Of a DNA stretch of 64,000 nt, positions 3 to 13,265 are shown piece by piece. The stretch comes from Candidatus Melainabacteria bacterium 17Bon1m (GTDB taxonomy: Bacteria > Cyanobacteriota > Vampirovibrionia > Obscuribacterales > Obscuribacteraceae). The notes below the pieces were generated by a model. The model was not told the origin of the DNA. It saw only the letters and a list, made by a program, of their open reading frames with translations, and searched no databases. Numbering within the stretch: position 1 is the first letter of the stretch; every line of letters begins with the position of its first letter. Where the stretch lies: the NCBI GenBank assembly GCA_032128875.1, contig JAVLKG010000003.1:225008-289007 (forward strand), read 5' to 3'. Position numbers and translations under genes: made by a program.

Positions 3-1214
3 CCGGTCGTCGTGTCTGTTTCTGCGCAGCCGATGCAACCCGGAACTCAACCTGGTGGTCCTGTGCCAGGGGTGCAACCGGGAATTCAACCTGGTGGTCC
101 TGTGACAGGGGTGCAGCCGGGAATTCAACCTGGTGGTCCTGTGCCAGGGATGCAACCCGGAACTCAGCCGAGCCCATCTCGTGCTCCGGCAGACGTACGT
201 ACGTCTGCGCAACTTGTGCCTGGCGTGGCGCTTGGTGATTGTGGTGATGTGACAGAAGCGATGGTCCGCACCTACTTTGCTGGTCGGAGTCCTGCCCGTC
301 CACCCAATCCCGCGACCAAAGCGTGTGAAGGTGGACGCATCCAAATGCGCGTCGAGGCTGCTCGGCACTTCGGTAATCGCATCATGGATCCTGTTCGCGT
401 GACGGTTTTGCTCAATTTCGAGCCGACTACGATCATCGACCTTGACTCGCTGCGGAGAGGAACCCTCACTTTCAACGGACAGGAGTTCGATCTGGTTTGG
501 CCGACTGCGCTGCTCTCCGGTCAGTCGCCCGTCAATGTTGAGATGCGGCATATGCGCAATGGCAGCGTTTTGCTGAAGATAGACCTTCTTCTGCAGAGTT
601 CTGTTCCATCATCGGTGGCACCGTATTTGGTGTTTCGTTTGGACCTTCGCTATGCGATGGGCAACATTCGTGACGCTCAGGGGCAAGCAACGACATCTCC
701 CGATTGGCGTGTTCTCTCGACACCGCTTCTTGGGTTGACCTTGTCACCAACCGCTACAGCCGGCGATCAATTCCGCGATTTCGCAGTTGAGCCTGTTCCG
801 CAAGTCATGCCGTGGCCGACTTTGTGGTTGCTCATCGTGGGTATTGCTTCGGTGCTGTTCCTTCCCGGGCTTGTGGTTGTGCGATGGATCAATCGCCTTC
901 GTCCGGGTCGGCAGGTTTCCCGCGAGGAAATCGCATGGCGCACAATCGACGCAGTGAACGCGTCAGCGAGAGAGAGCGATGGCTATCACAAGCCGCACTT
1001 TCGGCGTATTGCGGATGCTGTCCGTGCATATTTCGGACTGCGGTCGGCAACGATCTCCGAGGTGCAATCGCGTCTTTCAACACATCCGCATCTTGCGGAC
1101 ATTGTGGATGTACTTCGCTCATGTGACGGCATTCTGTTCGAAGATGGCGCCATCAATCAGCGCGAGGTGCAAGCACTTCGACGCAAGCTGGAGTTGATCA
1201 TCCCTCGTCCGTGA
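3..1214 (+). CDS. MxaA/BatD-like single-pass membrane protein with N-terminal Pro/Gly/Gln repeats (5' partial)
   Basis: Frame is open to the window edge. It shows an 'RHFGNRIMDPVRVTV' beta-rich domain, a TM (WPTLWLLIVGIASVLFLPGLVVV) and a C-terminal helical domain (FRRIADAVRAYFG...LRSCDGILF). This resembles MxaA-type accessory proteins of MoxR/vWA operons. Confidence 0.5.
   Translation, partial: PVVVSVSAQPMQPGTQPGGPVPGVQPGIQPGGPVTGVQPGIQPGGPVPGMQPGTQPSPSRAPADVRTSAQLVPGVALGDCGDVTEAMVRTYFAGRSPARPPNPATKACEGGRIQMRVEAARHFGNRIMDPVRVTVLLNFEPTTIIDLDSLRRGTLTFNGQEFDLVWPTALLSGQSPVNVEMRHMRNGSVLLKIDLLLQSSVPSSVAPYLVFRLDLRYAMGNIRDAQGQATTSPDWRVLSTPLLGLTLSPTATAGDQFRDFAVEPVPQVMPWPTLWLLIVGIASVLFLPGLVVVRWINRLRPGRQVSREEIAWRTIDAVNASARESDGYHKPHFRRIADAVRAYFGLRSATISEVQSRLSTHPHLADIVDVLRSCDGILFEDGAINQREVQALRRKLELIIPRP
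33..170 (+). repeat. In-frame 39-bp tandem repeat (3.5 copies, [M/V]QPG[T/I]QPGGPV[P/T]G)
   Basis: Units start at 33, 72, 111 and 150. Confidence 0.95.
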
Positions 1215-2823: not shown

Positions 2824-3870
2824 TCACTGGCGGCGCGTGACCCAGCCTGTAACTCTGCCGGTTCTGTCTGTGGCAATCACATGATTGTTGCCATCGCCGG
2901 TGGCGATTGTAGTTGTGTAATTACCAGTGCGCGGATCCATTACCGTTTCTGCAGAGCGCACACCTTGCAACTGACGTGTTCCGTATTGATCGCGAACATT
3001 CATGTCGATGCCTTCGCCGCTGTAGCGGACGTTAGAGCGAACGATTTCGCCTGTTCTGCGATCGGTCTCTTGCATCACTTGCGCTGTCGGCGGGCTGCTG
3101 AATAGGTAAGTGCCGTTTCTGACCGGAGCTTCGTATGTTCTCACATTGCGTTCACCGGCGGGCGCAGTGTAATCGTTCGTGCGTTCTCCTTCCCTCCAGC
3201 GAGCGCCGTTCTCGCGTCCTGGTTCAACCTGACCGGGCAATCGCATCGGGTGGTAATTTTCAGCACTCGGAGTCAGACCTGGATTGGTATCACCGACGCC
3301 GCGAGAAGCTTCCGGGCGTGCCCGGTCTCTAATCGATGGAATTGTCAGCTCTGTTCCGACGCGCACATTGTTGGTGTCGCGCAGGCGGTTGGCTTGACCG
3401 ATTGCTTGAACCTGTTCGTGAATGTCCCGGAGTGACGGTTCAGAGCCAGTTTCTGCTCTCAGTCGTTGGCGTGCGATGTGCGACAGCGTGTCGCCGGGAC
3501 GAATTGTGTAACGTGTCGATCCGTCACCCTGATCTCTAAAGTCACGTTCGCCATTCGGTGTGACGCGACCTTCCGGAGTGCGGCGTTCTGACACGACAGC
3601 GCCGGTTCTGCCATCACGAACTTGTTCGCTGCGACCATCTGAGCTGCGCGTGATCAACTGTCCGTTGTTTGCACCCATAATTTGAATGTCGTCATTGCCT
3701 GCAAATCCAAGGCGGCGCATGTCGACGCGATCGTTGATTGCCTGACGTTCGCGCGCCCACGATGCGGGGTTGCGCTGCAGTTCTTCGACCTGCCTTGTGA
3801 TGGCGCTGATGTCTCGTCCATCTGTTCTTTCGAGTGCTGTTGCAACTCTGTCCACTTCTTGGTTTCGCAT
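2824..3870 (-). CDS. LysM domain protein (paralog 1), no signal peptide
   Basis: LysM YTIRPGDTLSHIA...NRLRDTNNVRVGTELTIP; RBS AGGAG. Confidence 0.85.
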   Translation of the reverse strand: MRNQEVDRVATALERTDGRDISAITRQVEELQRNPASWARERQAINDRVDMRRLGFAGNDDIQIMGANNGQLITRSSDGRSEQVRDGRTGAVVSERRTPEGRVTPNGERDFRDQGDGSTRYTIRPGDTLSHIARQRLRAETGSEPSLRDIHEQVQAIGQANRLRDTNNVRVGTELTIPSIRDRARPEASRGVGDTNPGLTPSAENYHPMRLPGQVEPGRENGARWREGERTNDYTAPAGERNVRTYEAPVRNGTYLFSSPPTAQVMQETDRRTGEIVRSNVRYSGEGIDMNVRDQYGTRQLQGVRSAETVMDPRTGNYTTTIATGDGNNHVIATDRTGRVTGWVTRRQ

Positions 3871-3989
3871 TTGTGACTCTCCTGGTAAATAACTGCCGAG
3901 TGGCTTTCTATGGGGATGTCGGGGTGAGTAGGATCAGCGAACATGTAAGTTGTTCGCTTAGATTGCTGGGGGAAGTGCTTTCGATTATG

Positions 3990-4022
3990 AGATTATCATC
4001 GGTAGTTGCCACCAAGATGACA
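3990..4022 (-). promoter_or_regulatory. TGTCA direct-repeat promoter, copy 2
   Basis: Minus strand TGTCA-tcttgg-TGGCA-actaccgatga-TAATCT. Confidence 0.8.
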
Positions 4023-4080
4023 TGACCGAAAGCAGCTTCCTGCAACCTTTCTATGTTTCCCTGCGCTGCGTCTGCGCTCC

Positions 4081-5190
4081 TTAACGCGATTCGTAGTTGG
4101 TCACGCGACCCGATCTGCCGTCGGTGCGGAAGGTGTGACGACGTCCGCTTTGCTCGACAATCTCGGTTGTGTAGTTACCGTCTTGTCCGCGAGTCGTCGT
4201 TGCTGTGCGCGGTTCTGCAATGACCACATCATTGCGTCCACCGGCTCCTTGTGGAACCTGAACACGAATCGGTTCTACAATTTCCGGATACGTTACTTGT
4301 GAGCGAACGACATTACCTTGCCTGTCGAGAATGCGTTCAACACTGGATGGTGCAAATCCATTTCCTCCAACCGTCACTTGGTACTGTTGTCTAGTGGAGC
4401 CGTCCGGCAATTGTGTTTGACGCACGGACGCTGGATTTAGCCTTTCTTCGGGCAAACCACTGGTAGTGTTGTCGCGACCCGAGCCTGTTCTTCTAATTGT
4501 TTCTTGTCTCGCTGCTCCCGGCTCCGTGTTGAGTCCTGGGACAATCAACGGATGGCTGACATTGCGTGGTAATTCTTGTGCCTGACGTTGCAGGTCTGCT
4601 TGTCTCAGTGGCTGGACTTGTTCGCGCTGTGGTGTGCCGGCGGGCGGAGTTGCTTCAGGTGCGCGTTCTCCCGGTCGTGGGACGCGGATTTCTTGACCCG
4701 GGCGAATGCGATTAGGGTCTTGGATGCCGTTTAGCCTGGCAAGTTCTCTGTAATCGTTAGTAATTTCCTGCGGAGTAGGTGTGCGCCCGTGCTGAGCGGC
4801 CATGCGCTCCCTGGAGATACTCCAGAGCGTGTCACCTGGTCTAACTGAATAACGGGCGGTTCCATCTGGCTGTTGCTGAAACTCGCGCGGCGCTTGCGCT
4901 GAAACTATTTCAAAGGTTCGGCCATCTCTTTCGACGCGACGTCCGTCTGGATTTCTTGTTTGGACTCTGCCACCTTGCCCAAGACCAGTGATCTCGAAGT
5001 CGACGTTATCGGGAAAACCAAGTGCACGCATATCAACACGCTCATTGAGCGCGCGCAAATTCTGTGCAAACGCGCGAGGGTTTTCTCTCTGCATTTGCTG
5101 CAGTTCGGCCGTAACAGCTGAGAAGTCTTGACCCTGGCGGGTGTTTTCCAGGCGTCGTGTAACGTTTTCGAGTGGTTGTTCGGGAGGCAT
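4081..5190 (-). CDS. LysM domain protein (paralog 2), no signal peptide
   Basis: LysM YSVRPGDTLWSIS...NGIQDPNRIRPGQEIRVP; N- and C-termini align with 2824-3870; RBS AAGGAG. Confidence 0.85.
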   Translation of the reverse strand: MPPEQPLENVTRRLENTRQGQDFSAVTAELQQMQRENPRAFAQNLRALNERVDMRALGFPDNVDFEITGLGQGGRVQTRNPDGRRVERDGRTFEIVSAQAPREFQQQPDGTARYSVRPGDTLWSISRERMAAQHGRTPTPQEITNDYRELARLNGIQDPNRIRPGQEIRVPRPGERAPEATPPAGTPQREQVQPLRQADLQRQAQELPRNVSHPLIVPGLNTEPGAARQETIRRTGSGRDNTTSGLPEERLNPASVRQTQLPDGSTRQQYQVTVGGNGFAPSSVERILDRQGNVVRSQVTYPEIVEPIRVQVPQGAGGRNDVVIAEPRTATTTRGQDGNYTTEIVEQSGRRHTFRTDGRSGRVTNYESR

Positions 5191-5296
5191 TAGCGATACT
5201 CCTTTAGGAACGTGAAAGCGGCAGCCTCACTCGAACTGACTCGATGTGTGAGATGCGCTGTAACAGGGGAGAGAGATAAAGAACTTCGATGCCTAA

Positions 5297-5329
5297 AGAT
5301 TACTGTTTGAAGTTGCCACCAAGTTGACA
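5297..5329 (-). promoter_or_regulatory. TGTCA direct-repeat promoter, copy 3
   Basis: Minus strand TGTCA-acttgg-TGGCA-acttcaaacag-TAATCT. Confidence 0.8.
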
Positions 5330-5363
5330 TGGAAAGGGTTGGCGAAGAAAAACTCTCACCACA

Positions 5364-5398
5364 CCAAAAAGAAGAGACGGGTCGCTGGGTCCATCTCT
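5364..5398 (-). terminator. Intrinsic terminator after 5435-6223
   Basis: Minus strand GAGATGG...CCGTCTC stem followed by TTCTTTTT. Confidence 0.5.
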
Positions 5399-5434
5399 CC
5401 TATTGGCTGGTGCATTGGGCTGTCGAACAAAGCT

Positions 5435-6223
5435 TTAGAACTTTTCGCTGAGGGTTCGCGAGAAGGTCGGATTAATTGGCAGCCTGATGCGTGAAGGTGC
5501 ACCTAGCTGCTCGCTGCGCGCGGCAATGCTTTCAGGGCTGATATAGCGCCCTTCATCGCCGTTCCACAGGAAGTTGGCAATCGTATTGAAGAATCCATTG
5601 CTGTTGGCTAAAGCGGGCGCATCATTTAATAGCGTCCTTATCGCTGCGTGCTGTTGCTTGTTGAAATACTCTGGGTTTTGTCCGGCCGCCTCACGCAAGG
5701 CGCCAACCTGAATTTGGTTGTTGTCTGCGACACCGTCTGGATTTATCTTCCTCATCATCGCGACTAGATCATCATATTGTTTCGCCGCAGCTTGCGTACT
5801 GCGTGCCTCCGGCATCAAGCCATCTTTGATGCCGGCACGAACTTCGTCGCGTGTGATGTGGTCACGATTGGTTGCGGTCATGTAATCGAGAGCTCGTTGT
5901 GCTCCCATCACAGCCAAATTGTCGCGCGTCGATTCCGGCTGGCGTTGCTGGTTTCGGATGTAGCTAGTAAGTTCGTCGCGTTCGACAACACCGTTGCCGT
6001 TTCCACCTAAATCGATGCGGTTAAACCGCTGGTTAAGCGTTTCAATCATCAAACCACCAACCAGACCTTGCTCTTGCATTTGACGGGATTGGGCAACGAT
6101 TCTCTCCGCAGCAGAGCCAGGCGCCGCCGGCTGAGCGTAACTCATGGCGGCTAAAGACGCCCACGCGTCGCTGGATGCTGGAGGTGCAGCGCAGTCCTCC
6201 TGGATGTCCTTAAATTTGCTCAT
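5435..6223 (-). CDS. Hypothetical protein with EF-hand-like motifs
   Basis: FNRIDLGGNGNGVVERDEL and weaker repeats (DHITRDEV, RYISPESI); RBS AGGAG before ATG 6223. Confidence 0.65.
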   Translation of the reverse strand: MSKFKDIQEDCAAPPASSDAWASLAAMSYAQPAAPGSAAERIVAQSRQMQEQGLVGGLMIETLNQRFNRIDLGGNGNGVVERDELTSYIRNQQRQPESTRDNLAVMGAQRALDYMTATNRDHITRDEVRAGIKDGLMPEARSTQAAAKQYDDLVAMMRKINPDGVADNNQIQVGALREAAGQNPEYFNKQQHAAIRTLLNDAPALANSNGFFNTIANFLWNGDEGRYISPESIAARSEQLGAPSRIRLPINPTFSRTLSEKF

Positions 6224-6270
6224 CAAATCTCCTCTCAGCGCGAGCTGAAAAACAAGCGAGTGTTCTTGAA

Positions 6271-7598: not shown

Positions 7599-7705
7599 TA
7601 GGTAAAAACGCCACCAGCGCCAGAATTCTTTGAGCTTTTGGTCGGACGAGCAATAAAAATGAAACAACCGGCGATTACATTTAGCCTATTACTAGGATTC
7701 ATGCC

Positions 7706-9172
7706 ATGCCCTCAACTCACCGAGCGAACGATAATGTCGCGCCAGGCGGCGATAACTATAGAGCTCCAAACCGTTTGGAGACCGAAGGTGTCGGCTACAT
7801 CTCCGGTGGCTGAGGCGGCGGTGGCTGCCGCCCACCAGGTGGTGGGTCCGAAGTTCCAAGAGGTTCGTTGCCCGGTCTGGAGATAAGCCAGGGCACGATT
7901 AATCCGGAAGCGAATCAGACTTGGTTTGGACCTGACGGTGAGATCAAGTATGGAACTGCCATCGAGAAAGCTCAATTCGACGCAACTGTAGGCGTCCAGG
8001 GTTCTGAGAAAGCAAAGAAAGCGAAAGCAGGGAAGCCCGAAGGCGCCGCGGATGAGAAAGAAGCCGAAGGCGATGGCAAAAACGGCGAAACCGCCACTGA
8101 AAAGTCTGAAGAAGAGAAGCTCCAAGATGCATTGAAAGCCGCTTACGATAGGGGTGTTCCTGCGGTCGTCGCATTTGGTTCGCAATCTGCCAAAGATACT
8201 GAAAAACTTCTTGGCACTCTCGACCAAAACATGAAAAATGGGAAAGCAGACTTTATATATGCCGACACGGACAAGCTTGACCCCAATTCAGAACTGGGGC
8301 AAGTCGCTCGTCGCAGCGAAGAAAAGGGACAGGGGCTTGGTGCTGATGGAAAGGCAGACCTGGCTTTCACTGGCGTCTATAAAGTCGAAAAGGGCGCAGA
8401 CGGCAAGTACCACATTGGAAATTCTGTAGCTACTTTCTGGGGCGGTCGCCCGGAAATCGCCGGAATCATGAATGATCAACTCAAGTATGCGTCGCGCGAT
8501 GTTTCTGAGGGCAACGGCTCTGATGTAAGACCTGCACCGGGAGCCGATGTTCGCCCACCTGGTGGAGACGGTGGTAACGGCTCTTCCAATGGAGAACGTC
8601 CAGCAATTGAACCTCCAAAGACAGAAGAAGAAAAAGCGGCCGCAGAAGAAAAGGCAAAAGCAGAAGCTGCTGAAAGAGCAAAAGCCACTGAAGAGAAAGC
8701 CGCGAAAGAGGCTGCTGAAGCCGAACGCGTAAAACAGTTTTCCGACAAACCTTATTCTATGGACCAGTATAAGGAAGGTTGGGGCCGAGCTTTAGATCGT
8801 GCTGGAATGGAAGCCGGACCTATGAGGGATGCTGTCGATAAGCTCGGTCAACAAGTGTTATCCGGTCAATTAGATGGAAAAGAAATTGCTGGGCTAATGG
8901 GTCAGTTAGAAGGGCTAGAGCGTGGAGAGGCAGCCCAGATGCTGGCTGGTGTAAATCAAGAACTGAAAGATCGTGGTGTTGCGATCAGTGCCACGGTCAA
9001 AGACGGCAAGATTCAATCTATGGAAATGCGCGCTGATAATGGAAACGTTTTGGTGCGTGTCGATCAAAATGGCAACGTGACTGCCACCAACAAGGGAAGT
9101 GCAAATCCGGAAAGCCCTGAACAAATTTCTCTGCGTCTGGCTAAGAAAATTGAGCCGGACGCATGCCCCTGA
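7706..9172 (+). CDS. Hypothetical protein with degenerate thioredoxin-like domain; in-frame TGA at 7811-7813 (candidate Sec codon or nonsense mutation)
   Basis: ATG 7706 (AGGA 8 nt upstream) is in frame with the 7868-9172 ORF and the only interruption is TGA at codon 36. The segment 'LQDALKAAYDRGVPAVVAFGSQSAKDT' resembles a Trx-fold start lacking CxxC. Confidence 0.6.
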
Positions 9173-9299
9173 AACGGCTAGCGACACTTGAAACCGTGCG
9201 TTTCAATAACTAATTTCAAATGAATTATCTTAGACTACCAACGAAGTTTTGCCTTCGCTTGGCGCTAAGGGGTGGGAAGAGTAGAGCATCGTGCGCCTC

Positions 9300-9848
9300 T
9301 CAAGAAAATAGCCGTTCTGCGGTTGCCCAGTAAAGGCACTCTTCGGCATTGCAACGCATAGCATAGTCAACCATCTCTGCAAGTTCTGGGGGAACCAAGC
9401 TTATCAGTTTGCCCTCGCCACAATAAGCAGGGAAATACATTAGCCAAGTATCCCACGGAGGAATATTCTCCAGATCGAAGTATCCGTTACTGACTGAGGC
9501 TGCTGCGCCATCTGAAAGGTTTGTCCCCGGAAGATACACAAGAAATTTGTGGGTTGTATCGTTTACAGAGGCTGTCGCTGGATGTCCGCCCGCATCGGCA
9601 AGGAGTTTCGCACGACGATCTGACAGAGTATCCACCCACGATCGTCGACTATCTTCATTAGCACGTAACTGATTCCAATCAGAGGCAGAACGCGTTACAT
9701 CCCAGGACGGTGCCCAGTCAAATGGTACTGGTGGTGTGCCAAACTCGATGCTCCTCAGGCTGTTGTGCAAATCGTTAACCGAGAGACGCATAGCGCACCA
9801 CTCTCGAGTTTCTGCAACTCGCTGCCAAAATACTTGTTCACTACCCAT
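9300..9848 (-). CDS. Hypothetical protein
   Basis: 182-aa ORF with a globular-looking motif LSDGAA...GYFDLENIPPWDTW. Confidence 0.65.
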   Translation of the reverse strand: MGSEQVFWQRVAETREWCAMRLSVNDLHNSLRSIEFGTPPVPFDWAPSWDVTRSASDWNQLRANEDSRRSWVDTLSDRRAKLLADAGGHPATASVNDTTHKFLVYLPGTNLSDGAAASVSNGYFDLENIPPWDTWLMYFPAYCGEGKLISLVPPELAEMVDYAMRCNAEECLYWATAERLFS

Positions 9849-9962: not shown

Positions 9963-11408
9963 TCAGTTCGCCTTCGAGCACGCCACGTCGCGGACTTGTC
10001 CCTTAAGGACGGGAACTAATTTCTCGTCGATCATTTTTTCCGCTTTCTTCAAATCAATCTCTTCTGCACTTTTGATGCCTTTGCAGAGTTCTCCGACAAT
10101 TTCATCAATGATGACGCCTGCGTCGCGACACACAGAATAGGGTGTGTGCGTGAAGGTAACAAGCGCATAGCGAGATGCAAACTTGTCGGGGAAGTTTTTC
10201 TCCAACACTTTTTCTGCGGCTTTCTGAAGCAAGAATTCTGGTTGCCCTACTTTGTCGCGCATTTCGATGAAGTTTTCGATTGCCATTTGCGCAATCGCAT
10301 CGGCATTAGGTTTTCTCGACTCGTCGAATTCGAGAAAGAGAGCTTCCCAATCCAAAACATCATCAGGCTGCAAATATTTTGTCAGCAAATCTTCGAATAC
10401 GGTAAGGTCTTCGAACGCGCAGTTGGCACCTTGTCCGAAGAATGGCACGATTGCGTGAGCGGCGTCACCGACTAGAAGAACTCTGTCTTTGTAGTGCCAT
10501 GGTTTTGTCGTAACGGTGACCATGCTGCCGGTGGGGTTGTGGAAGAAAGTTTCTTCCGGTTTGTCGAACATTCCATAGGCGTCTGCAAAGTCTGTTTTGA
10601 AGAAGTTGCTGACGGCGTGCTCGTCTTTGAGTTTTTCAAAACACGGCGAGCCGTTGATGGATTCATAGGGAAGGAAGAGTGTGCAGGTGAAACTGCCATC
10701 GAAGTTAGGCAGGGCGATGATCATATAAAGCCCGCGCGGCCAGATGTGGAGAACGTTCTTCTCCATGGCAAATTTGCCGTCTTCGAGAGGCAATACAGCG
10801 AGTTCTTTGTATCCGTAATTCAAATAGTCTTGCTTGCACGGATAGCCGGCTTTCTCTGTCATCGTTTCGCGAATCTGTGATGCAGAGCCGTCAGTGCCGA
10901 TGATGAGGTCGAATGTTTCTTCGTGCTGAGTTTTGTCTTCTTCGTTTTGGATTGTAAGTGTGTTTGTTTCCAAATCGATATTTGTAACGCGCTGGTTGAA
11001 TTTAATTGTCACTGCACCGGCTTTCTCCGCAGCGGTCATGAGGGTTTTGTTCAACTCCCCGCGTGAGACTGAATTGCCAAATTCTGAATCATCTCGACCG
11101 TAAGGTTGATAGGTTGTTTCTCCCGTTCTCGAATGCATTAGACGTCCCATCATGGGCACTGAGTCCTTGAGAATTGTTGCTTCCAGCCCTGCTTTCTGAA
11201 GCGCTCGCAGTCCCCGACGCGTGATGTTCAAGTTGATCGAACGTCCCGCGCTGATTTCCGCGACACGCATATCAGGACGTCTTTCGAGCATGGTAACTTT
11301 CATGCCGCGGCGAGCTAGGAAGACCGCCAAAAGCGAGCCTGTAAGGCCGGCACCGACAACGCAGACGTGTGTGTCGGACAATTTCTTCGTGAGTTTTTTA
11401 AGTGACAT
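9963..11408 (-). CDS. kmo: Kynurenine 3-monooxygenase
   Basis: GAGLTG FAD motif, GRSINL, LHIWPRG, GDAAHAIVPFFGQGANCAFED, ENFIEMRD; adjacent to kynU. Confidence 0.93.
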   Translation of the reverse strand: MSLKKLTKKLSDTHVCVVGAGLTGSLLAVFLARRGMKVTMLERRPDMRVAEISAGRSINLNITRRGLRALQKAGLEATILKDSVPMMGRLMHSRTGETTYQPYGRDDSEFGNSVSRGELNKTLMTAAEKAGAVTIKFNQRVTNIDLETNTLTIQNEEDKTQHEETFDLIIGTDGSASQIRETMTEKAGYPCKQDYLNYGYKELAVLPLEDGKFAMEKNVLHIWPRGLYMIIALPNFDGSFTCTLFLPYESINGSPCFEKLKDEHAVSNFFKTDFADAYGMFDKPEETFFHNPTGSMVTVTTKPWHYKDRVLLVGDAAHAIVPFFGQGANCAFEDLTVFEDLLTKYLQPDDVLDWEALFLEFDESRKPNADAIAQMAIENFIEMRDKVGQPEFLLQKAAEKVLEKNFPDKFASRYALVTFTHTPYSVCRDAGVIIDEIVGELCKGIKSAEEIDLKKAEKMIDEKLVPVLKGQVRDVACSKAN

Positions 11409-12714
11409 GCTCGCCTACTGCTTTTGCAAAGTGGTATACATCTTCGAAGGTGTTGTACATCGGTGTTGGTGCGGCCCGCATAATGTCGGGCTCGCGGAAA
11501 TCGCAAATGACGCCCTTTTCGCCAAGTTTTTTGACGAAGTCTTTTGGCTGTGTTTTCAGTTTGATCGAAAGTTGCGAACCTCTTTGTGCAATATCTTGCG
11601 GCGTGATGACTTTGAAAAAGTCACCGCCAATATCGCTCAGCAAGAATTCCAAATATGCTGTGAGCACATCTCCTTTGCGCCGGAGATTAGCCATTCCAGC
11701 CTTGTCGAATAGTTCCATTGAAGCGCGCAATGCTGCCAATTGAAAAATGGGCGGGTTGCTCAGTTGCCAGCCTTCGGCACCAGGGATAGGGTCAAAAGTT
11801 GGTCCCATTTGGAAGCGAGTCTTCTTGTCGTGCCCCCACCAACCGGCAAATCTAGGCAGCGAAGTGTCTCTCGAATGCCGCTCGTGGACAAAACATCCGG
11901 CAAGTGAACCAGGACCGGAGTTGAGATATTTGTAGCTGCACCACATCGCAAAATCGACATCGTCGTCGTGCAATTTTAGATGCAGATTGCCTGCGCCGTG
12001 CGCTAAATTGAAACCAGCTAATGCGCCGACCGAATGCGCTTTCGCAGCAATCGCCTTCATGTCGAATGCTTGACCGGTCAAGTAATTGACGTTGCCCAGC
12101 ATGACGAGTGCAAGTGATTGGCCTTCCTTTTCGATCGCCTGCAAAATGTCCTCGGGGCGTAGCGTATACTCCCCGTCGCGCGGCTTCAGTGCGACGACAG
12201 CGGTGCTCGGATCGAAGCCGTGAAATTTTGCTTGCGAATCTACAGCGTATCTATCAGATGGAAATGCATCTGCTTCGATGATGATTTTGTAGCGTTCTTT
12301 TGTAGGGCGATAAAAGGAAACCATCATCAAGTGCAGGTTTACCGTGAGGGTGTTCATGATCACCACCTCAATCGGTTTGGCACCAACCAATCGAGCTGCC
12401 ATTTCAGTCAAGTTTTCGTGGTATGGCAACCAGGGGTGACGAGCATCCCAATGCCCTTCAACGCCGTGCTTAGCCCAATCATCGAGTTCTGCGCCTATGT
12501 ATTCACGCACTCGCACCGGCTGCAAGCCCAAAGAGTTTCCCGCCATGTAAATCCATTCCTTGCCGTCTTTGGTCTTCGGAATCAGATATTCTTTGCGAAA
12601 CTCCGCGAGTTCGTCCTTCTTATCCAGACTGCGAGCAAATTCCAAATCGTTCTTGAATTGATGCTTTGAAATAGTTTCGGACGATTCTGCTAATTCTGCT
12701 CGCTGACTAGACAT
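11398..12714 (-). CDS. kynU: Kynureninase
   Basis: GNSLGLQP, MNTLTVNLHLMMVSFYRP, AFPSDRY, WCSYKYLNSGPG, GWQLSNPP; start at ATG 12714 with GGAG. Confidence 0.95.
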   Translation of the reverse strand: MSSQRAELAESSETISKHQFKNDLEFARSLDKKDELAEFRKEYLIPKTKDGKEWIYMAGNSLGLQPVRVREYIGAELDDWAKHGVEGHWDARHPWLPYHENLTEMAARLVGAKPIEVVIMNTLTVNLHLMMVSFYRPTKERYKIIIEADAFPSDRYAVDSQAKFHGFDPSTAVVALKPRDGEYTLRPEDILQAIEKEGQSLALVMLGNVNYLTGQAFDMKAIAAKAHSVGALAGFNLAHGAGNLHLKLHDDDVDFAMWCSYKYLNSGPGSLAGCFVHERHSRDTSLPRFAGWWGHDKKTRFQMGPTFDPIPGAEGWQLSNPPIFQLAALRASMELFDKAGMANLRRKGDVLTAYLEFLLSDIGGDFFKVITPQDIAQRGSQLSIKLKTQPKDFVKKLGEKGVICDFREPDIMRAAPTPMYNTFEDVYHFAKAVGEHVT

Positions 12715-12749
12715 CTGTTTGCTCCGTCTCGGCGTGTATAAGTGTCGTC

Positions 12750-13265
12750 CTATTTGCTCGGCGCTTTCGTCTTCGTGCCGCACTTTTTGCAAGTGGAGTG
12801 ATCGCTGTTGTAGAAGCGATCGAAGATCGGCGGAAACTGTTTGACAATATCAGTCAGATGAAAGTGCTCCTCGTAGAGCTTTTCATCGCAGTTTTCACAA
12901 AGCCAGACAAAACCGTCTTGCTCCCCTTCAGCGCGCTTTCTCTCAATAACAAGTCCGACAGTGTTGGCAGGGCGGCGCGGAGAGTGCGGCATATTGGCTG
13001 GGAGGAGAAAAATCTCCCCTTCTTTTATCGGAACATCCTTTGGCTTGCCGTCTTCGATGACGCGCAAGACGATGTCGCCTTCGATTTGATAAAAGAATTC
13101 CTCTCCCGAGTTAACGTGATAATCGGTGCGGCTATTCGGACCTCCGACCACCATGATGATAAACTCGCGGTCTTCCCAAACCAGTTTGTTACCGACTGGC
13201 GGTTTTAACTGGCTGCGATTCTCTTCGATCCAAGATTTAAAATTTAGCGGCATAAGCGCGGGCAT
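12750..13265 (-). CDS. nbaC: 3-hydroxyanthranilate 3,4-dioxygenase
   Basis: LKPPVGNK, VGGPNSRTDYH, EEFFYQ, PHSPRR and two CxxC rubredoxin-like sites. Confidence 0.95.
   Translation of the reverse strand: MPALMPLNFKSWIEENRSQLKPPVGNKLVWEDREFIIMVVGGPNSRTDYHVNSGEEFFYQIEGDIVLRVIEDGKPKDVPIKEGEIFLLPANMPHSPRRPANTVGLVIERKRAEGEQDGFVWLCENCDEKLYEEHFHLTDIVKQFPPIFDRFYNSDHSTCKKCGTKTKAPSK

Follow-up and report, generated by a model that had tools for sequence, protein, structure and literature searches.

Does an in-frame TGA codon close a gene, or does it encode an amino acid? The question is raised by a locus of Candidatus Melainabacteria bacterium 17Bon1m (assembly of 7.55 Mb, 93% complete), located in a stretch of 64,000 nt of contig JAVLKG010000003.1 (the window; contig C3), in which the reading frame that starts at ATG 7706 meets TGA 7811-7813 (TGA1, codon 36, context GG-TGA-GGGG-C) and stays open as far as TGA 9170-9172 (TGA2). 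A preliminary description of the window had proposed TGA1 as the selenocysteine (Sec, U) codon of a candidate selenoprotein and had taken TGA2 as its stop. What it said of the sequence (ATG 7706 with AGGA, the in-frame TGA at 7811, the frame open to 9172) holds throughout, and the proposal stood for TGA1, whereas TGA2 is probably a second Sec codon. The region 7706-9181 was read, with a probability of about 0.72, as one gene encoding a protein of 491 residues in which two UGA codons are translated as Sec (Table 1). Conserved TGAs, conservation of the coding sequence to either side, hairpins with covariation, the Sec machinery, Cys homologues of the first site and the predicted folds were all observed and are described below.

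Conservation of the first TGA

TGA1 and the U-x4-C motif were present in 19/19 orthologous loci with a readable N-terminus, of which 11 were of the same genus (from a search of 41 related genomes) and 8 were distant Sec-forms (37-61% identity, motif G-U-G-x3-C) recovered by a profile-guided scan of named genomes. The relatives were metagenome-assembled genomes of Candidatus Obscuribacterales/Melainabacteria. An ATG was found 34-53 codons 5' of TGA1 in 17/17 orthologues. The ratio of nonsynonymous to synonymous substitution rates (dN/dS) of the part 5' of TGA1 was 0.03-0.25 in 9/12 pairs, dS being saturated in the other 3, and the 20 codons 3' of TGA1 (to TTG 7868) gave a dN/dS of 0.035-0.81 across the 12 pairs, with values of 0.1 or less in 5. 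In these 20 codons dS was 0.32-1.21, lowered relative to the ~1-3 or saturation seen elsewhere; an overlapping RNA structure would produce a depression of this kind.

In the homologues, the Sec column was occupied by TGA or Cys and never by Gly, which had been named in the preliminary description as a check, together with the Sec genes and the sequencing runs considered below. The three Cys-form orthologues, all from another genus, read G-S-C-P-G-G-V-C-P, and their first Cys was placed on the Sec column by MAFFT; a Cys of a paralogue in the same genome was placed likewise. TGA1 very probably encodes Sec.

The most divergent orthologue of the same genus (L034, genome G012, at about locus position 1146) reads ...H-T-M-G-U-N-G-N-I-C, and it was excluded from the TGA1 alignments. 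Its nearest ATG lies two codons before the TGA, with a further TGA upstream, and the loop of a CCACA/GGT/TGTGG hairpin lies ~38 nt downstream.

The hairpin following the first TGA

The hairpin that follows TGA1 (hairpin 1) consists of the arms CCCACC (7831-7836) and GGTGGG (7841-7846) around the loop AGGT (7837-7840), and an additional G-U pair extends it to 7830-7847. Its loop lies 23 nt past the TGA with G at position 2, as the preliminary description had it. A second hairpin had been described there as competing; instead, the upstream hairpin (7814-7829) was found to form together with hairpin 1 in the minimum-free-energy fold. The consensus for the bacterial selenocysteine insertion sequence (bSECIS), as given in the available text of PMC13188914, comprises a stem of 4-16 bp, a loop of 3-9 nt with G among the first two nucleotides, a distance of 16-37 nt from UGA to loop and an energy of <= -7.5 kcal/mol. 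Hairpin 1 lies within all four of these bounds.

When 18 sequences were aligned, three rows of them one column off register, 84.9% of cells were paired and 3 pairs were changed on both sides (8 cells); on three measures, the observed value was matched by 0/500 shuffles. The covariation falls at synonymous third positions of Pro/Thr/Phe and Gly/Glu codons, and one pair is represented as A-U, G-C, G-U and U-A. The peptide 3' of Cys41 varies (PPGGG, PTGGGG, TPGGE, FPGGE), and the hairpin is kept. It was absent from 3/3 Cys-form orthologues, whose best candidates amounted to none, -1.0 and -2.7 kcal/mol.

The second TGA and the hairpin beyond the proposed true stop

The frame continues past TGA2 as TGA-AAC-GGC-TAG (9170-9181), that is, U-N-G-stop. 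The orthologues all end in D/A-A-C-P-TGA. In 14/16 sequences the codons after TGA2 specify N-G (once H-G) and a TAA or TAG stop comes next; the other two sequences are longer by 1 or 2 codons. One synonymous AAC/AAT change was found in the Asn codon; with only 2 codons 3' of TGA2, coding conservation on this side is barely testable. A profile of the C-terminal domain, run against 107 genomes of the order, gave matches in 22 genomes of 7 genera. Exactly one TGA was present in 21/21 matches that reach the end of the domain, and none in the four partial matches without the tail. An exhaustive hidden Markov model search of 1.84 billion representatives returned 40 relatives of this domain at E <=0.001, and 20 of the 40 end exactly in CP.

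Hairpin 2 (TTGAAAC/CGTGC/GTTTCAA) begins 6 nt past the true stop. Across 16 sequences, 98.2% of cells were paired, 3 pairs were changed on both sides (9 cells) and the score was reached by 0/500 shuffles; a set of 10 sequences gave the same picture. The loop varies (CGUGN, AGUUU, AGUCU, CGGUG, CGGCG, CGGGC), G being its first or second nucleotide in 16/16, and its spacing from TGA2 is 19-22 nt. Sequence conservation stops directly after the hairpin. Three of the bSECIS bounds enclose hairpin 2 of the present genome, its energy falling short of the -7.5 kcal/mol threshold. Considered as an intrinsic terminator, it lacks a T-run and no call was made by the terminator scan. An ACGG/CCGU pairing after TGA2 was also tried as a rival structure and was rejected, with 0 pairs changed on both sides and shuffles that equalled the observed value.

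A short architecture of ~300 residues (L090 and L091, from genomes G116 and G115 of genus g3) contains the same C-terminal domain but has neither N-terminal arm nor thioredoxin-like core. It reads L-A-C-P-TGA-N-G, the frame runs on for 19 more codons, and an 8-bp hairpin of unrelated sequence with a GGA loop lies at the same 22-nt spacing, inside the continuing frame. Because an unrelated hairpin is thus found at the same spacing in a continuing frame, hairpin 2 fits a selenocysteine insertion sequence (SECIS) better than a terminator. According to the available text of PMC13188914, bacterial SECIS elements are usually inside the coding sequence, and SECIS elements in the 3' untranslated region are described for archaea and eukaryotes and not for bacteria. 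From the evidence at this site, TGA2 is considered likely to encode Sec489. Genus g3 also carries the long form in an all-Cys version that ends in a thioredoxin domain.

Selenocysteine machinery and sequence verification

The genes selA (497 bits), selD (370 bits) and selB (286 bits) were found in the genome, all above curated cut-offs, as was tRNA-Sec (67.5 bits), which ARAGORN calls tRNA-SeC with anticodon tca. Across the order, selA was detected in 86/107 genomes, and among the genomes carrying the present gene it was detected in 16/21. The 5 carriers in which selA was not found are 64-93% complete; tRNA-Sec was above cut-off in all 5 and selB was found in 4. At least one Sec component was present in 21/21 carrier genomes. 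The MsrA gene of the same genome also contains a TGA in frame (G-U-F-W-G), and the GGC loop of the hairpin after it lies at +21-23. In this Sec-type MsrA (G000 contig C1:605245-605728), the PMSR profile matches in two pieces in different frames (positions 1-82 and 83-151).

TGA was read at 7811 in 4/4 public sequencing runs, and the contigs of all four cover both TGAs without difference. One of the four runs belongs to an independent drinking-water study, in which the strain has 11 differences elsewhere in the stretch.

Table 1. Features of the proposed selenoprotein gene, its predicted protein and the surrounding region of the window
Feature	Position	Strand	Remarks
Shine-Dalgarno-like AGGA	7694-7697	+	8 nt ahead of ATG 7706; read off the sequence
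Proposed complete selenoprotein gene, 491 codons (Sec36, Sec489)	7706-9181	+	true stop TAG 9179-9181; translated with TGA=U
Disordered arm with Sec36 and Cys41	residues 1-65		pLDDT <50
First Sec codon (very probable), U36, motif G-U-G-x3-C	7811-7813	+	TGA kept in 19/19 loci; Cys aligned in relatives; 4/4 sequencing runs
Cys41 (TGC), partner of Sec36 in U-x4-C	7826-7828	+	invariant column, 17-sequence alignment
SECIS-like hairpin 1, 7-bp stem, AGGU loop 7837-7840	7830-7847	+	loop 23 nt after TGA1; -12.1 kcal/mol
Conserved segment	residues ~66-100		pLDDT ~50-70
Thioredoxin-fold core, alpha/beta, SQSA replacing CxxC	8108-8491, residues ~135-262	+	pLDDT ~65-85
Low-complexity linker and long helix	between core and C-terminal domain		pLDDT low over 265-305, ~60-90 over helix
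C-terminal domain ending A-C-P-U-N-G	8741-9178, residues ~346-491	+	pLDDT 85-97, ~55 at last residue
Cys487 of C-P-U motif	9164-9166	+	invariant in 15/15 sequences
Probable second Sec codon, U489	9170-9172	+	annotated as stop everywhere; TGA in 21/21 profile matches; 4/4 runs
SECIS-like hairpin 2, 7-bp stem, CGUGC loop 9195-9199	9188-9206	+	22 nt after TGA2, wholly past true stop
182-codon ORF	9300-9848	-	between selenoprotein gene and kynurenine 3-monooxygenase gene; no Pfam match
Kynurenine-pathway cluster	9963-13265	-	convergent with selenoprotein gene, conserved in genus
Two LysM-domain proteins (348, 369 aa) and a 263-aa protein with weak EF-hand similarity	2824-6226	-	
ORF, open reading frame; pLDDT, predicted local distance difference test.

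Weighing of the alternative readings

Several observations weigh against one gene with two Sec codons. Among the 10 closest sequences, 95.7% of the cells of hairpin 1 were paired, with 1 double-changed pair, and 78/500 shuffles reached the score. The Pro and Gly codons that make up hairpin 1 are complementary by nature, and by chance the all-Cys paralogue contains a hairpin of -11.2 kcal/mol that passes loose criteria, an example of how easily Gly-rich coding sequence folds. The alignment of the Sec and Cys forms, anchored by conserved motifs upstream (FGDP..L) and downstream (LPNLEI..INPE.N), was written with U as C, which favours that column. The bare hairpin 2 folds weakly (-4.3 kcal/mol in this genome; the species range from -4.3 to -9.2, and 6/16 reach -7.5), and it lies past the stop, between genes that are convergent within the genus, where another role is possible. 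No Cys variant of the second site was found, 0/40 family members ending in CPC; for almost every known selenoprotein a Cys homologue exists, according to the available text of PMC12013277. No conserved neighbour or known family pointing to a specific function was found. Three RNA-Seq libraries contain the stretch on contigs of 21-38 kb, possibly derived from DNA. The actual insertion of Sec at either UGA is deduced from the sequence.

Some of these points favour a reading in which only TGA1 encodes Sec, TGA2 is a real stop, the protein ends in ...D-A-C-P and hairpin 2 is a 3'-end RNA element that acts in stability or termination between convergent genes. The missing Cys variant and the weak fold of hairpin 2 both agree with it, as do the convergence on the kynurenine 3-monooxygenase gene within the genus (with a gap of ~40 nt in one relative) and the predominance of bacterial SECIS elements within coding sequence in the available text of PMC13188914. 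This reading was nevertheless judged improbable. The supposed stop is TGA in 21/21 genomes, yet either TAA or TAG serves as the next stop, and N/H-G with an in-frame stop follows it in 14/16 sequences. Hairpin 2 keeps its place in genera without the convergent neighbour, has no T-run and is not terminator-like. Its loop, 19-22 nt past TGA2, invariably has G as the first or second nucleotide, and an unrelated hairpin lies at the same spacing in a gene running 19 codons further. Families of selenoproteins with the ending U-x-x-stop are, moreover, on record (PMC13188914, available text).

Passage of the TGAs without Sec, by near-cognate insertion of Trp or Cys or by a lineage-wide codon reassignment, is very unlikely. 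It draws on the fact that passage of TGA1 alone, and not the residue inserted, can be read from the sequence. The ordinary ORFs of the window (translation table 11) are closed by standard stops in a genome that is 93% complete; the Sec machinery is complete, each TGA is followed by a hairpin with the geometry of a SECIS, and Cys, the usual counterpart of Sec, occupies the first site in homologues.

Slightly less probable still is that TGA1 is a genuine stop, which would leave a 35-codon upstream ORF and a main ORF translated from an internal start codon, for example TTG 7868, an option that the preliminary description had raised. This TTG does have AGAGG 4 nt upstream, and public annotation assumes such an arrangement: gene calls in public databases begin 3' of TGA1 and finish at ...ACP, and 21/21 database homologues, all of them a 'hypothetical protein' or unnamed, are called from starts 3' of the first TGA. 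The internal start is not conserved, however, being CTG in other species, and the calls start at scattered places. The codons from the TGA to any start, including those before the TTG, evolve in frame as protein, purifying selection in this frame also acts upstream of the TGA, and the Cys-form homologues read straight through the Sec column. In the 27 homologue sequences inspected, the end was ...ACP or that tail was absent. The members of the family are thus trimmed at both ends, and the two residues likeliest to do the chemistry are absent from every public record.

A pseudogene with a nonsense mutation, or a sequencing or assembly error, which had also been considered beforehand and has nothing beyond the in-frame stop in its favour, is already refuted by the same TGA in 19/19 independent assemblies and in 4/4 runs including a divergent strain, and by strong purifying selection on both sides.

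Architecture of the predicted protein and its proposed function

Under the reading with Sec at both UGAs, the hairpins whose loops lie 22-23 nt past each UGA would recruit SelB carrying Sec-tRNA, so that the SelA/SelB/SelD/tRNA-Sec system of the genome would serve both sites. The ribosome would insert Sec36 in the arm G-U-G-G-G-G-C and Sec489 in the tail A-C-P-U-N-G-stop, and hairpin 2 would act from wholly within the 3' untranslated region.

The structure of the protein was modelled with AlphaFold2 on 17 sequences (mean pLDDT 68.7). Nearly all top Foldseek matches of the core were thioredoxins (probability ~1, template modelling score on the target 0.55-0.71), with E values of ~0.02 and none that reached 0.001. 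The position of the CxxC motif reads F-G-S-Q-S-A-K-D-T, and no Cys was present there in 17/17 sequences. The core bears the invariant signature DTD-x-LDPNS...GLG-x2-GK-x-D...FTG-x-Y, which to our knowledge does not occur in thioredoxins. An invariant Gly-rich loop of the core, G-x-G-L-G-x2-G-K-(S/A)-D (~8327-8356, residues 208-217), has a Walker A-like pattern, but it was modelled as coil before a strand and not as strand-loop-helix.

When folded alone, the C-terminal domain gave a pLDDT of 93.9 and a predicted template modelling score of 0.89. Against the PDB, its Foldseek probability was <=0.35 and the best VIA-align Z was 3.7, with 0/48,161 chains at Z >=5; the fold searches show no match, and a new fold is not proven thereby. 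The ESM Atlas held no usable match for this domain. The Pfam scan of the protein returned chance rows only, with no thioredoxin family at E <=1, and the NCBIfam scan at E <=1 returned only a chance TolA row (query P0001, without the final Gly). A profile search of the sequences of solved structures gave 0 matches at E <=1, and so did Rfam over 7600-9400.

All-Cys relatives were found in Obscuribacterales, namely the loci L033, L060 and L062, the protein P0022 and the paralogue on G000 contig C2 near 174919. The CxxC-less thioredoxin-fold core is kept in these relatives (31-58% identity), and so are the N-terminal arm region and the INPE-x-N segment, except in P0022 as called, which has neither at its N-terminus. 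In L033, L060 and L062, C-x4-C replaces U-x4-C; no such motif is present in P0022 as called, and in the contig C2 paralogue the Sec column is occupied by Cys and the second Cys column is not. In place of the C-terminal domain, the all-Cys relatives have a thioredoxin with WCGPC or WCPKC. This exchange is the best hint that the C-P-U domain may be a redox module, and it offers a direct, testable functional hypothesis.

A redox function of the protein is rather more probable than the contrary, to judge from these comparisons. The protein may be a thiol/selenol oxidoreductase in which Sec36 and Cys41, on the disordered Gly-rich N-terminal arm, would form one selenenylsulfide redox centre, and Cys487 and Sec489, at the end of the C-terminal domain, would form another; the CxxC-less core would be a scaffold or a substrate-binding module. 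The preliminary description had suggested that U-x4-C supplies the chemistry missing from the CxxC-less domain, which is plausible: among the all-Cys relatives, C-x4-C is retained and a WCGPC thioredoxin is present in addition. The two Sec arms may also act together. Tentatively, and with some doubt, a two-armed selenium relay around a catalytically silent thioredoxin fold can be imagined, in which the C-terminal domain would be a new redox module that replaces thioredoxin (swapped against the WCGPC domain), electrons would pass between the selenenylsulfide tail and the Sec36/Cys41 arm, either within one molecule or across to a partner, and the SECIS for the tail would lie purely in the 3' untranslated region.

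In one locus (L031, genome G008) the Sec arm and the core are present, and the protein ends after 267 residues (...YEPPFKRK). The C-terminal domain was found nowhere in this genome (86% complete); truncation of the gene or faulty assembly may explain the short form.

Comparison with known selenoproteins

The gene resembles the bacterial selenoproteins that depend on SelB and SECIS, as treated in the available text of PMC13188914, in its in-frame UGA, hairpin geometry, nearby Cys partner, Cys homologues of the first site and full machinery. Unlike them, it is matched by no Pfam or NCBIfam model, its motifs are U-x4-C and C-x-U-x-x-stop instead of the usual UxxC/CxxU, its second SECIS would lie wholly past the true stop, and the second site is without Cys homologue. 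No entry with U-x4-C was present in the selenoprotein family table of PMC13188914, in the part that was available. The table of prokaryotic selenoproteins there does include C-x-U motifs and the 'UXX-star' families NF041114 and NF041211 (credited to Haft & Tolstoy 2025). Since the latter place Sec two residues before the stop, a Sec so near the C-terminus has a precedent. As far as the same text describes them, the UXX-star families share with the present gene Sec followed by two residues and a true stop, and gene callers cut them at the UGA; in contrast to them, the present protein gave no NCBIfam match at E <=1, its host domain has a different fold, a Cys stands two residues before Sec (C-P-U) and a second Sec would be located near the N-terminus.

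The core superposes on thioredoxins such as Chlamydomonas thioredoxin h1 (PDB 6i19) and poplar thioredoxin-like 2.1 (PDB 5nyl). It differs from them in having SQSA in place of CxxC, no Pfam thioredoxin match and a Foldseek E of only ~0.02.

Animal thioredoxin reductase carries a C-terminal Gly-Cys-Sec-Gly arm. The present protein would likewise have a Cys/Sec pair in its last five residues, possibly as a mobile redox tail, which is an analogy and not homology: it has C-x-U and not adjacent C-U, no pyridine nucleotide-disulfide oxidoreductase domain, and SECIS candidates of the bacterial type.

We regard these genes as a genuine unannotated selenoprotein family in Obscuribacterales (Melainabacteria), non-photosynthetic relatives of cyanobacteria. 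The family was in no selenoprotein review searched, as far as the text of these was available, though the supplementary lists of BSepDB or deep-Sep could hold it. The term 'Cyanobacteri' was absent from the available text of PMC13188914, PMC13326102 and PMC12013277, and 'Melainabacteria' from that of PMC13188914 and PMC13326102. Judged by the listings, literature linking selenoproteins with Melainabacteria concerned animal gut microbiota only, and none pairing selenocysteine with Obscuribacter was found. A family with two Sec residues, from a lineage unmentioned in the available parts of the reviews searched, would thus be added to the bacterial selenoprotein catalogue. It would provide structural biology with a confidently predicted domain without structural relative, and it may be a natural example of a bacterial SECIS wholly past the true stop. 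Selenoprotein finders that demand a SECIS within the ORF or a Cys homologue would miss cases of the TGA2 type.

Gene neighbourhood

The genes of kynurenine 3-monooxygenase (KMO), kynureninase and 3-hydroxyanthranilate 3,4-dioxygenase (3-HAO) adjoin the selenoprotein gene only within this genus; at the seven loci from other genera, unrelated genes flank it (serpin, TPR proteins, kinase, patatin, bestrophin, rhodanese). Because neighbours are conserved only within the genus, no functional inference was drawn from the context. In the present cluster, KMO is represented by a kynurenine 3-monooxygenase-like FAD protein. The 182-codon ORF has no counterpart in 17 related loci; it looks like a genome-specific insertion, since the relatives have only a gap of ~40 nt at this place. 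The genes of the two LysM-domain proteins and the EF-hand-like protein, in which no obvious N-terminal signal peptide was seen by eye, are conserved upstream of the selenoprotein gene in two close relatives.

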